Assembly: GCA_016934265.1 (NCBI GenBank)
Contig: JAFGTF010000078.1
Location: forward strand, 10,459 to 74,458
Source: Spirochaetota bacterium
Lineage (GTDB): Bacteria > Spirochaetota > B62-G9 > DRHN01
Reading direction: 5' to 3'
Length of the DNA stretch: 64,000 nucleotides
In this document: one piece after another, positions 26,169 to 28,706 of the stretch
Position numbering within the stretch: the first letter of the stretch is position 1
Layout: each line of letters begins with the position of its first letter
Made by a program: the position numbers and the translations under genes
The notes under the pieces: generated by a model
Told to the model about the DNA's origin: nothing
The model's database searches: none
The model's input: the letters and a program-made list of their open reading frames with translations, nothing else

Positions 26169-28706
26169 TCAGGGACGTATACTCACAGAACGTTCGATTT
26201 TTAATTCCCGTACCGCATTCTCGAGCCTTCCTGCGAATACGTCGTACCCCTCTTCCGCGTACTCGACCGGTGCGCCGAACCGTACCACGACCCGGCCGCG
26301 CCGTAGAAACCGCGCACCCGGCGGCAGCACCTTTTCCATGCCGTCGATGCAGACCGTGTATACCGGCGACCTCGTCTGCGCCGCGATCATGCCGATTCCT
26401 TTCTTGAACTCGTGTACTCGGCCGTCGGAAGAAACCTCTCCTTCCGGGAAAACGAGCACCCATCGGCCCGCGTCCAGCAGCTCTCCCGTATACTCGAGGC
26501 TCGGCCGGTATGCCGCACCCTGCGGAAACGGATATGTCTGAAAGAGCAATGTAACGGTACGGTACGCAAGACCGGCAAAAAACCGTTTGATCCGATTTCC
26601 GGTATCTTCCCCCCGAGGCCCGGTCGTATACCCTGCGAAACGGGCGCCGAAACGGTTGAGACCCATCGCAGGGCACAGCAGTTTCCTGTATCGTACAGGC
26701 AGCGCGAGAAGTATCGCAACCGGGTCGAGGTGCGACGTGTGGTTGCTCACCAGTATTCTCTCTCTTTCGCCTTTTTCGATCCATTCGAGCCCCTCGGTCT
26801 CGAGCCTGCAGAACAGCCGCATTACAGGAAGCAGCGCACCGTCCAGCAAAAGCCTCCGTACAACCCTCACGGGAAGCGACCTGTTCCAGCGTGGCATTTT
26901 CAGCGCGGTGTGCGGCCTGGGGTGCTGAGCCAGCTTTTCGAGATCGCCCAGCGTGGTGTGCGGACTTATATCGGACTCGTCGAGGCTCGTTCCGTATTCC
27001 TGTTCGAGACGCAGCACCAGCTCGATGCGGTCGAGAGAATCGAGGCCGAGGTCGTCGGCGAGTCTCGATTCCGGTGCCGCGTCCGGGGGGATCAGTTTTT
27101 CGAGCGGATTATCGCTTTGTATCACGGCATGCGCGCTTTGAACGCGGGACAGCACCTCCTCCCGCCTGATCTTGAGCGTCGGGGTTCTGGGAAAATCGGG
27201 CGCGTCCCACACGGTGTACCCTTTTATCTTCTGGAAGGGGAGAAGGGAGTTGTTCGCCGTACGGACGGCTTCCACCGGTTCGATCGATTCATCGAGGAGC
27301 AGAACGGCATGAACGGTTTCGCCGCTTTTATGTGGCATGCCGAATACGAGGCTGTCCCGCACCCCGTCGACACGGCCCAACGCCTCCTCGACGTCGCTCG
27401 CGAAGACGTTTCTCCCGTCGGGAGTGACGATCATCTCCTTTTTACGGCCACGTATGTACAGGAGGCCGTCTTCGCCCACGGTTCCCATGTCTCCGGTCGA
27501 AAGCCAACCGTCGCGGAGAACCTGCGCGGTTTTTTCCGGATCCTTGTAGTACCCCTCCATCACGTTCTTGCCTCTAACCTGGATCTCTCCCTCTTTGGAG
27601 ATACGTACCGATTGACCCGGGAACACCCTGCCGACTGACGCCCTATCGTGACCGAACGGGCTGAACATCGAAACGATCGGCGCGGTCTCGGTGAGCCCGT
27701 ACCCCTGAAACACCGCATAGACGAGCCGGCGCCAGAACTCGTGCGTATCAGGGTCGAGCGGCGCGCCGCCGACGATAAAGGACCAGAATGAGAGGCCGAA
27801 GAAGCGGCGGACGTCTAAAAAGAACGGCCATCGCAGCGGATAGGGAAGCGAGACAAGTCGGTCGTACCGTCTCTCGAAGCCTTCCATCCTGCCGTTTGCA
27901 CGGAGAAAAGAATAAAAGTGATCCTTCATCAGTCTCATCACGCGCGGCACGGTAATCAGGCTGATGATCCTGTTTCGCTTTATCTGGCGGATGAGGGAAG
28001 CGGGGTCGTTGTCGGCCGCCTCATAGACGGTGCTGCCGATGAGCACTGGAAGGAAGATCCCCGCTATCTGGCCGAACATGTGGCTGTACGGTACGCAGCA
28101 GAGGATCCTGAGAGGGGTGCAAAGCCGTATTAGACGCTTTCTGCGCTCGATTCCCTCCTCGAGAGGTTTCAGGTCCGCGAGAATGTTGCCGTGGGTGAGC
28201 ACCACGCCCTTCGGGTTCGCCGTGGTACCGGACGTATACACGATTTCGGCTTGATCGGAAAGCGCGACGGGCTCCGGTATCCCGGGGGGGCCTTCACGGC
28301 ACGCAGCGATATCTTCCTCGGTTACACAGACGGCGTGTCGGCTTGACAGGGCCGCGGGGTCGGTTTTCGAGCCTGAGATAACGAACGACGGTTCCGTCTG
28401 TTTCACGATTTCGCGAAGCAGCGACTGTGGGGAGTCGGGTTCGATCGGTACCACCACTCCTCCCCGGTGAAGCACCGAAAAGAAGGCGATGACCCATGAC
28501 GGTCCCGGCCGCAGCCCGAGAATGACCCGCTCTCCTTTTTTCAGGCCGGCTTTTTTCAGCGCGCCGCTGAACCCGAGCGAGGCGCGTTGAACTTCGTCGA
28601 AGCGCCACGGATTAGAGCGGTACCCGTCACGGCCGACGAGGTAAATACGGCTTCCCCATTCCTGCATGAGGTTTAGGTATCCTTCGAGCGCGATTCTTTC
28701 TGCCAT
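26169..28706 (-). CDS. Tri-domain fusion: AMP-dependent acyl-CoA/acyl-ACP synthetase, an acyl-carrier-protein-like domain and a PlsC-type lysophospholipid acyltransferase (Aas-like, domain order reversed)
   Basis: AMP-binding motif [21 protein letters not shown] plus YGLTET and a downstream GWL.TGD adenylation motif. 4-prime-phosphopantetheine site [16 protein letters not shown]. Acyltransferase motifs VSNHTSHLD (HX4D) and VFPEGEVS. Single uninterrupted 845-aa ORF. Confidence 0.75.
   Translation of the reverse strand: [845 protein letters not shown]

Follow-up and report, generated by a model that had tools for sequence, protein, structure and literature searches.

Introduction

Escherichia coli Aas, which acts as an acyl-ACP synthetase (ACP, acyl carrier protein) and as a 2-acylglycerophosphoethanolamine (2-acyl-GPE) acyltransferase, carries an acyltransferase (AT) followed by an adenylate-forming ligase (A) in a single chain and makes use of free ACP. 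A different assembly is found in Myxococcus xanthus ElbD (MXAN_1528), which, according to a review, consists of a fatty acyl reductase (FAR)-like domain, an acyl-CoA synthetase (ACS), an ACP and an acyltransferase resembling 1-acylglycerol-3-phosphate acyltransferases (AGPAT), and is required for the formation of alkyl ether lipids. The same review reports that the ligase and carrier activities of ElbD were demonstrated in vitro, that its acyltransferase activity was undetectable, and, with reference to Lorenzen et al., that ElbD-like homologues devoid of the FAR-like domain occur in other phyla. Split variants, in which a reductase (Re) is encoded apart from an A-ACP-AT protein, were described for Poribacteria and Acidobacteriota in a 2026 preprint. 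Fusions of a ligase with a lysophospholipid acyltransferase (LPLAT) were mentioned in surveys of fatty acyl-AMP ligases (FAALs) as unusual and uncharacterised. The subject of the present analysis is a gene encoding a ligase, a carrier domain and an acyltransferase, in this order, which lies within a stretch of 64,000 nucleotides from a Spirochaetota bacterium (contig JAFGTF010000078.1, positions 10,459 to 74,458; this whole stretch is referred to as the window).

Judged from its sequence, the tri-domain protein is most likely a functional analogue of E. coli Aas with a fused carrier and the opposite order of domains. Its architecture, compared by description, matches that of the uncharacterised A-ACP-AT group, that is, the reductase-less "ElbD-like" proteins of the literature.

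The tri-domain gene and its product

Genuineness of the fusion: The open reading frame (ORF) opens with ATG and is preceded by a GGGGAG Shine-Dalgarno-like sequence just upstream. Its description in the initial annotation as a single frame of 845 amino acids (aa) was borne out by the ORF list and the translation, and all five motifs quoted there were located in the protein: A3 (residues 158-167), YGLTET (336-341), the carrier motif (553-564), NHTSHLD (655-661) and FPEGEVS (753-759). A frameshift or an assembly join had been named as a possible origin of an artificial fusion. Both are ruled out, because an identical 845-aa protein is encoded in two independent assemblies (an NCBI contig of a metagenome-assembled genome (MAG) labelled "Spirochaetes bacterium", 78 kb, and a Logan assembly) and because alignments across 96-100% of the query length were obtained with more than 100 homologues that possess these three Pfam domains. 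The GC content of the gene (0.58) equals that of the flanking sequence. It is all but certain that the gene encodes a genuine enzyme of three domains, and the reading as an artefact is effectively refuted.

The gene stands alone on the minus strand and is convergent with a URO-D/MtaA-like gene. Nearly all genes of the window (1-64000) lie on the plus strand, and GC and AT skew are positive throughout; the tri-domain gene belongs to a very small minority on the minus strand and gives rise to the sole interval of negative GC skew (26-28 kb). An ORF of 148 aa that overlaps its 3' end (25961-26407, plus strand) and another of 162 aa that overlaps the rhaM region (24155-24643, minus strand) were without Pfam or NCBIfam match; neither figures among the genes annotated by Logan, and both are probably spurious.

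Ligase: The AMP-binding domain (PF00501) scored 207.8 bits against a Pfam gathering score of 29.9, which places the N-terminal part in the ANL superfamily. Its C-terminal subdomain gave a weak AMP-binding_C match at residues 439-509 (0.0017, under the Pfam threshold), and a DGW..TGD...GRKK signature, which we take to be the fatty acyl-CoA synthetase signature of the FadD literature, was found within residues 399-427. The best NCBIfam match was PRK06187 (208 bits; cut-off 476); no cut-off of a named fatty-acid ligase equivalog or subfamily was reached. In the Protein Data Bank (PDB), the ligase sequence matched MatB (E 3e-34) and FadD13 (E 4.5e-28), and the FAAL 3PBK only over residues 44-227 (E 6.6e-21). 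The ligase accordingly appears closer to CoA-ligase/ACSL-type enzymes (MatB, FadD13, 4CL) than to FAALs. In this respect it would differ from the FAAL-like ligase/LPLAT fusions, which likewise join a ligase to an LPLAT but contain FAAL-type ligases and stem mostly from Actinomycetota.

Carrier: The carrier domain that the initial annotation had placed between the two catalytic domains was recovered there by PF00550 (E 2.2e-9; score 37.9 bits, cut-off 20.8), with Ser557 within an LGLDSL motif. The closest NCBIfam models are acyl carrier proteins of type II fatty acid synthesis and not peptidyl carriers. No extra Pfam domain was found between carrier and acyltransferase, and since only about 45 residues separate the two, a hidden fourth domain is excluded.

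A ligase followed by a carrier is typical of the loading modules of nonribosomal peptide synthetases (NRPS) and polyketide synthases (PKS), and the structural model described below can be aligned to the EntE-EntB fusion of an adenylation domain with a peptidyl carrier protein (A-PCP). The window, however, holds housekeeping genes and no PKS, NRPS or tailoring genes. The alternative that the protein is a natural-product loading module instead of a membrane-lipid enzyme, taken together with that of an artefactual fusion, against which stand the two assemblies, the hundreds of collinear full-length homologues and the GC content, is scarcely credible.

Acyltransferase: The C-terminal domain was matched by PF01553 with 59.5 bits (E 4e-16, cut-off 23) and belongs to the PlsC/LPLAT superfamily. 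Besides the HX4D and FPEG motifs it contains a family motif, YPFPQG, at residues 725-730. Among NCBIfam models, it is matched best by acyl-[ACP]--phospholipid O-acyltransferases of the Aas type and by the AGPAT domain, and its sole sequence match in the PDB is Thermotoga maritima PlsC (5KYM, E 7.7e-9). The scores stay well short of PlsC proper (PRK15018, 11 bits against 501; AGP_acyltrn, 41 against 103).

Conservation, fold and localisation: Across an alignment of 22 diverse members that share 38-63% identity with the query, no catalytic residue varies in any of the three domains. The invariant residues are, in the ligase, T158-S159-G160 and P165-K166-G167 (A3), Y336-G-L-T-E340 (A5), T404-G-D406 (A7), G420-R-K-K423 (A8) and the catalytic lysine K512 (A10); in the carrier, G554, S557 and L558; and in the acyltransferase, N655, H656, S658 and D661 (HX4D) and F753-P-E-G756, together with the family-specific P726, P728 and Q729. 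Identity to the query is alike in the three domains (about 0.5 within a Spirochaetota-type group and about 0.4 to an acidobacterial group) and drops to 0.17 in the linker between ligase and carrier (residues 526-545). Such even conservation of domains around a variable linker is the pattern expected of three functional domains on a flexible tether.

An AlphaFold2 model calculated from the alignment reached a mean predicted local distance difference test (pLDDT) score of 81.3 and a predicted template modelling (pTM) score of 0.80. The ligase part superposes best (root mean square deviation about 4 Å) on thioester-forming conformers, namely 4-chlorobenzoyl-CoA ligase (3CW9) and the MenE ternary complex, so that the model would show the ligase in a thioester-forming-like pose. 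No transmembrane segment was predicted, the highest Kyte-Doolittle value (window of 19 residues) being 1.56.

Distribution of the architecture

In a word-indexed protein search, 6233 matches were obtained at E≤1e-10. The 120 best are nearly all tri-domain proteins, and they split into a Spirochaetota-type group (43-81% identity; the named sources are all "Spirochaetota bacterium") and an Acidobacteriota-type group (about 38-41%). When each GTDB species was represented by a single genome, a scan yielded at least 598 confirmed relatives; of these, 80 loci were examined, nearly all of them labelled Acidobacteriota (Vicinamibacterales, Bryobacterales, Terriglobia, Pyrinomonadaceae).

The acyltransferase domain alone was used in an exhaustive HMMER search of 1.84 billion cluster representatives, which returned 8974 proteins at E≤1e-3, 1347 of them at E≤1e-10. 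The best 150 of the 8974 are proteins of about 780-940 aa with a C-terminal acyltransferase, or fragments thereof; the first residues of the shorter sequences among them align at various places inside the query, which is the behaviour of fragments, and none of the 150 exceeds 1000 aa. From these lengths and from the placement of the domain, the acyltransferase subfamily would seem to occur essentially always as ligase-carrier-acyltransferase. The initial annotation had implied an unusual architecture. It is less so than this suggests: the architecture is widespread, generically annotated and already mentioned in the literature, and the family is uncharacterised.

Proposed function and choice of acceptor

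Comparison with Aas: Pfam assigns residues 15-137 of E. coli K-12 Aas (b2836) to Acyltransferase and residues 233-568 to AMP-binding, and gave no PP-binding match. By BLASTP, residues 151-423 of the tri-domain protein align with residues 366-614 of Aas (28% identity over 290 aa, E 3e-27) and residues 630-791 with residues 11-141 (25% over 162 aa, E 1e-7). The reversed order of domains relative to Aas and the lack of an embedded ACP in the latter, both asserted in the initial annotation, are thereby confirmed. Both catalytic domains are homologous in the two proteins, both proteins carry HX4D and FPEG, and in both the second position after FPEG in motif III is occupied by an aliphatic residue and not by arginine (FPEGRIT in Aas, FPEGEVS here); the same overall chemistry, from fatty acid via acyl-ACP to lysolipid, would be expected. 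They differ in that Aas is arranged AT-A and uses free ACP, whereas the tri-domain protein runs from A (residues 30-525) through a fused carrier (540-591) to AT (606-840), and in that the latter has an extra segment of about 30 residues (approximately 690-722) along with the YPFPQG motif. The NCBIfam Aas equivalog scores of the tri-domain protein lie far under the cut-off. Moreover, E. coli aas overlaps lplT, the gene of the LplT lysophospholipid transporter, but no major facilitator superfamily (MFS) gene flanks the tri-domain gene or those of its relatives.

Proposed reaction sequence: The activation, carriage and transfer of an acyl chain in cis, as originally put forward, holds as far as can be read from three Pfam domains with invariant catalytic residues. 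The enzyme would be soluble or peripheral to the membrane and would serve in fatty-acid salvage and lipid re-acylation. The ACSL-type ligase would convert a free long-chain fatty acid and ATP into the acyl-adenylate and pass the acyl group on to the phosphopantetheine arm on Ser557 of the AcpP-like carrier. The carrier would then swing to the C-terminal PlsC-type acyltransferase, where the His656/Asp661 dyad would move the acyl chain to a lysolipid's hydroxyl group; the lysolipid would most probably be a lysophospholipid whose head group is a phosphodiester. The gene is demonstrably intact and encodes three domains with conserved catalytic residues in a conserved architecture; we infer the fatty acid as substrate, the passage of the acyl chain in cis and what the acceptor is. 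A self-contained Aas-like enzyme of this kind (fatty acid and ATP to acyl-AMP, to acyl-S-carrier, to lysolipid) is regarded as the probable reading on balance, with modest confidence.

Motif III and the acceptor: The arginine of motif III in GPAT and PlsC enzymes helps to bind the acceptor phosphate of glycerol 3-phosphate (G3P) or lysophosphatidic acid (LPA). This PlsC-type arginine is missing from FPEGEVS of the tri-domain protein. At the second position after FPEG, valine is found in 49 of 57 sequences of the Spirochaetota-type group (FPEG-x-V-S) and arginine in 56 of 60 sequences of the acidobacterial group (FPEG-x-R-[ST]); the reference proteins have isoleucine (E. coli Aas, FPEGRIT) and arginine (T. 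maritima PlsC, FPEGTRS). Because the arginine has been replaced clade-wide by an aliphatic residue, as in Aas, a lysophospholipid or another acceptor that is not a phosphomonoester is suggested for the Spirochaetota-type clade rather than G3P or LPA. The replacement of arginine by valine is the main hint in the sequence as to the acceptor.

These observations bear on an alternative in which the enzyme would acylate G3P or 1-acyl-G3P in the manner of PlsB or PlsC and thus make phosphatidic acid de novo from scavenged fatty acids. T. maritima PlsC, a 1-acyl-G3P acyltransferase, is the only solved structure that can be detected by sequence, and it shares with the tri-domain protein HX4D, FPEG, the motif of the following beta-strand and an N-terminal helix before the fold; in addition, the AGP_acyltrn domain model gives a match, and the acidobacterial clade has kept the PlsC-like form of motif III. 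Yet T. maritima PlsC is a stand-alone protein of about 250 aa, the clade of the tri-domain protein has valine for arginine and a family-specific insertion, and its scores lie far under the PlsC equivalog cut-off. This alternative is considered unlikely, if the least so of those weighed here.

Several points weigh against the Aas-like enzyme proposed above. Homology leaves the substrate of the ligase unsettled, the top PDB matches including malonyl-, feruloyl- and coumaroyl-CoA ligases. The acceptor is assigned from a single motif together with weak profile similarities, every one of which stays far under its equivalog cut-off. Neither an lplT-like transporter nor any other lipid gene was found in the 64-kb window. 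Finally, acyltransferase activity is not known to have been demonstrated for any family member, ElbD itself included.

Relation to ElbD

As in the published description of ElbD, the tri-domain protein has an ACS-ACP-AGPAT core in the same order, and its want of a predicted transmembrane segment agrees with the solubility of ElbD. A role in alkyl ether lipid synthesis, with the A-ACP-AT core working in trans with a separately encoded reductase, would therefore be conceivable; reductase-less homologues and split variants are on record (the former in the review), and an ElbE-like gene of the NAD-epimerase family lies upstream in about 19-20 of the 80 acidobacterial loci. The tri-domain protein, however, begins with the ligase and gave no Pfam match to NAD_binding_4 or to any other reductase domain. 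Genes of the elb operon (the HAD-like elbB and the NAD-epimerase genes elbE/elbA) were not found in the window, and tblastn and Pfam searches revealed no ElbE-like, FAR-like or HAD gene, whether adjacent or elsewhere in it. There is no four-domain protein among the 150 nearest acyltransferase relatives, all of which stay within 1000 aa. Nor does an ElbD homologue predict ether lipids: BLAST-defined "ElbD homologues" have been counted widely in metagenomes, and Pontiella has such homologues and no ether lipids. An ElbD-like role is consequently rated as improbable. A hidden reductase domain or a split ElbD was likewise looked for and rejected, there being no domain between carrier and acyltransferase and no reductase gene next to the tri-domain gene or elsewhere in the window.

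In Vicinamibacterales, the homologues have directly upstream a divergent gene for a 307-aa protein of the NAD-dependent epimerase/dehydratase family that resembles the ElbE/ElbA class (Table 1). A conserved lipid-gene neighbourhood in Acidobacteriota was considered and discarded; what is seen amounts to synteny at the level of lineages and to the ElbE-like gene in about a quarter of the loci. Two neighbour genes were noted beside the homologue of a Pyrinomonadaceae MAG (Acidobacteriota subdivision 4; locus L081, 6568-8163 and 11623-13080, both minus strand): a B12-binding radical SAM protein of a type discussed for the synthesis of membrane-spanning lipids, 0.8 kb upstream and with a counterpart in 3 loci only, and a ThiS-ThiF-rhodanese fusion just downstream.

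Gene neighbourhood and the PIG-L deacetylase

The tri-domain gene is divergent from genes for a PIG-L deacetylase, a Gfo/Idh/MocA oxidoreductase and a ThiF/MoeB-type protein, which are spaced 12 and 15 bp apart. The three identities and the 537-bp gap, which had been reported in the initial annotation, proved correct (Pfam and NCBIfam; ATG of the PIG-L gene at 29244). The 537-bp region gave no credible Rfam match, and a simple scan found no sigma-70-like promoter in it, although such a scan says little for a spirochaete.

The neighbourhoods of 8 Spirochaetota-type genomes, which represent 6 sequence clusters, were compared. An orthologue of the PIG-L gene (61-88% identity) lies 0.15-5.6 kb away in all 8, and no other neighbour is present in every one of them. 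Orthology of Gfo extends no further than the relative with 55% identity (the two closest genomes), the others having paralogues of 23-30% identity, and that of ThiF no further than the closest relative (81%). The usual order in the Spirochaetota-type relatives is PIG-L (minus), manA (plus), tri-domain gene (plus), UbiE-like methyltransferase (plus), Rrf2, HD. The manA gene, whose product is a mannose-6-phosphate isomerase of class I scoring above the TIGR00218 cut-off, stands beside PIG-L on the side of the tri-domain gene in 5 of the 8 genomes, in 4 of these directly upstream of the tri-domain gene and on the same strand. A UbiE/CpaM-like methyltransferase dependent on S-adenosylmethionine (about 215-235 aa) follows 3' of the tri-domain gene in 4 of the 8, with a 13-bp overlap in one locus; its candidacy as a phospholipid N-methyltransferase was dropped, as NCBIfam gave just weak matches to models unrelated to lipids (CpaM, UbiE).

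Neither manA nor the methyltransferase of the relatives was found anywhere in the 64-kb window, and a search for remnants of them in the 537-bp region and in the 3' intergenic DNA was negative. Since the lineage of the window is without both genes and without any remnant of them in intergenic DNA, the direct head-to-head adjacency of the tri-domain gene and PIG-L looks derived.

The divergent operon had led to the proposal of a dedicated lipid or glycolipid modification pathway. The link is weak: the proximity of PIG-L recurs in all 8 genomes, but Gfo and ThiF are not kept, so that the three-gene unit is unsupported, and a PIG-L gene was found near the tri-domain gene in none of the 80 acidobacterial loci. 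As a signal, the proximity of PIG-L is real though modest, and it is difficult to tell apart from inherited synteny.

In its general form, the proposal would have a lipid or metabolite bearing N-acetylglucosamine (GlcNAc) first deacetylated by PIG-L (with or without the involvement of Gfo and ThiF) and then acylated, in analogy to LpxC/LpxD or to the deacetylase and acyltransferase of teicoplanin. PIG-L is the sole neighbour retained throughout, and at 61-88% identity, while the tri-domain protein falls to 47%; moreover, the clade is without the canonical phosphate-binding arginine, which would permit an acceptor that is not a phosphomonoester. Against this, manA intervenes between PIG-L and the tri-domain gene in the 5 genomes mentioned (in locus L004 it adjoins PIG-L), and the methyltransferase lies 3' in 4. 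The whole region is syntenic (Rrf2, HD, PALP, Cys_Met_Meta_PP), and the proximity may therefore reflect inherited gene order. Orthology of Gfo is lost beyond the 55% relative and that of ThiF beyond the 81% relative, and the acidobacterial loci offer no PIG-L gene at all. PIG-L itself is most similar to BshB1, a deacetylase of a soluble metabolite, and Pfam scans of the window revealed no glycosyltransferase nearby. A PIG-L-coupled glycolipid or aminolipid pathway is judged distinctly unlikely. The more specific version, in which the clade would have switched its acceptor with the change from arginine to valine and would work with PIG-L, using a scavenged fatty acid to acylate a de-N-acetylated glucosamine-bearing lipid or metabolite, is more doubtful still than either the general form or an ElbD-like role. 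If it were true, it would amount to a previously unknown acylated aminosugar-lipid pathway in spirochaetes that bypasses the cellular ACP and CoA pools.

Further features of the window

The coordinates of the features discussed are collated in Table 1. The rest of the window contains housekeeping genes (nusA, infB, pnp, malic enzyme, smc, ffh, trmD) and genes of sugar catabolism (LacI, L-fucose isomerase, rhaM). At 52754-54335 (plus strand), a gene for an N6/N4 DNA methylase (PF01555, E 1e-50) precedes one for a BglII-like restriction endonuclease (PF09195, E 3e-34). This pair sits exactly in the GC trough of the window (0.41 against about 0.55), and because of this location it probably represents a type II restriction-modification island gained by horizontal transfer. 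A cluster resembling type II secretion or type IV pilus systems, with a somewhat low GC content, extends over 56617-63404 (plus strand). A DUF6051 protein with a near end-to-end family match (431 bits) is encoded at 49878-51119 (plus strand), and two large secreted-type proteins at 224-4775 (plus strand), one with FG-GAP/beta-propeller repeats and the other with a right-handed beta-helix (NosD-like), fn3 and CarboxypepD_reg.

Table 1. Positions of the tri-domain gene, its domains and motifs, neighbouring genes and corresponding regions in relatives (window coordinates unless a locus is named; residues refer to the 845-aa protein).
Feature	Residues	Position	Strand	Basis and remarks
Tri-domain gene (ligase, carrier, acyltransferase)		26169-28706	-	845 aa and stop; ORF list, translation, Pfam
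Adenylate-forming (ANL/ACSL-type) N-terminal domain	30-387	27546-28619	-	PF00501, E 3e-61; A3 158-167, A5 YGLTET 336-341
Ligase C-terminal subdomain	388-525	27132-27545	-	Signature 399-427 and A10 lysine K512
Carrier (PP-binding) domain	540-591	26934-27089	-	PF00550; attachment Ser557 encoded at 27036-27038
PlsC/LPLAT-superfamily acyltransferase fold	606-840	26187-26891	-	PF01553 at 636-787
HX4D motif	656-661	26724-26741	-	Acyltransferase
FPEG motif	753-756	26439-26450	-	Acyltransferase motif III
Intergenic region, tri-domain gene/PIG-L		28707-29243		537 bp; ends conserved with 81% relative
PIG-L/LmbE-family deacetylase		29244-30020	+	Pfam, NCBIfam; BshB1-like, below cut-off; ATG at 29244
Gfo/Idh/MocA oxidoreductase		30033-31067	+	Pfam, NCBIfam; probably unrelated
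MoeB/ThiF-type adenylyltransferase		31083-31919	+	Pfam, NCBIfam; probably unrelated
Secretion cluster, prepilin peptidase			+	
Secretion cluster, secretin		57135-59342	+	
Secretion cluster, GspE-type ATPase		59389-60864	+	
Secretion cluster, GspF		60648-62060	+	
Secretion cluster, GspG pseudopilin		62217-62708	+	
Secretion cluster, further N-methyl-motif protein			+	
manA/tri-domain/methyltransferase region of relatives		L007 6958-11358; L092 7944-12332; L093 7010-11357; L094 7837-11589; L005 8001-11326		
Epimerase genes upstream of homologues		L009 6996-7919; L010 6960-7886; L011 7052-7975	-	

Conclusions

Within this window, the tri-domain gene is unremarkable: it bears a generic annotation and belongs to a family that is common but unstudied; its standing is that of a known but uncharacterised type, because the architecture is common, carries generic annotations and has already been noted. 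Reductase-less forms have nevertheless been tallied as "ElbD homologues" when producers of ether lipids or of brGDGTs (branched glycerol dialkyl glycerol tetraethers) were inferred from metagenomes, and knowledge of their real role would sharpen or correct such inferences. The split between arginine and valine in motif III offers a concrete, testable handle on acceptor specificity. If the proposed Aas-like function is true, the family would provide a compact route, independent of the ACP pool, by which free fatty acids enter membrane lipids in the Spirochaetota and Acidobacteriota, both large and mostly uncultured groups.

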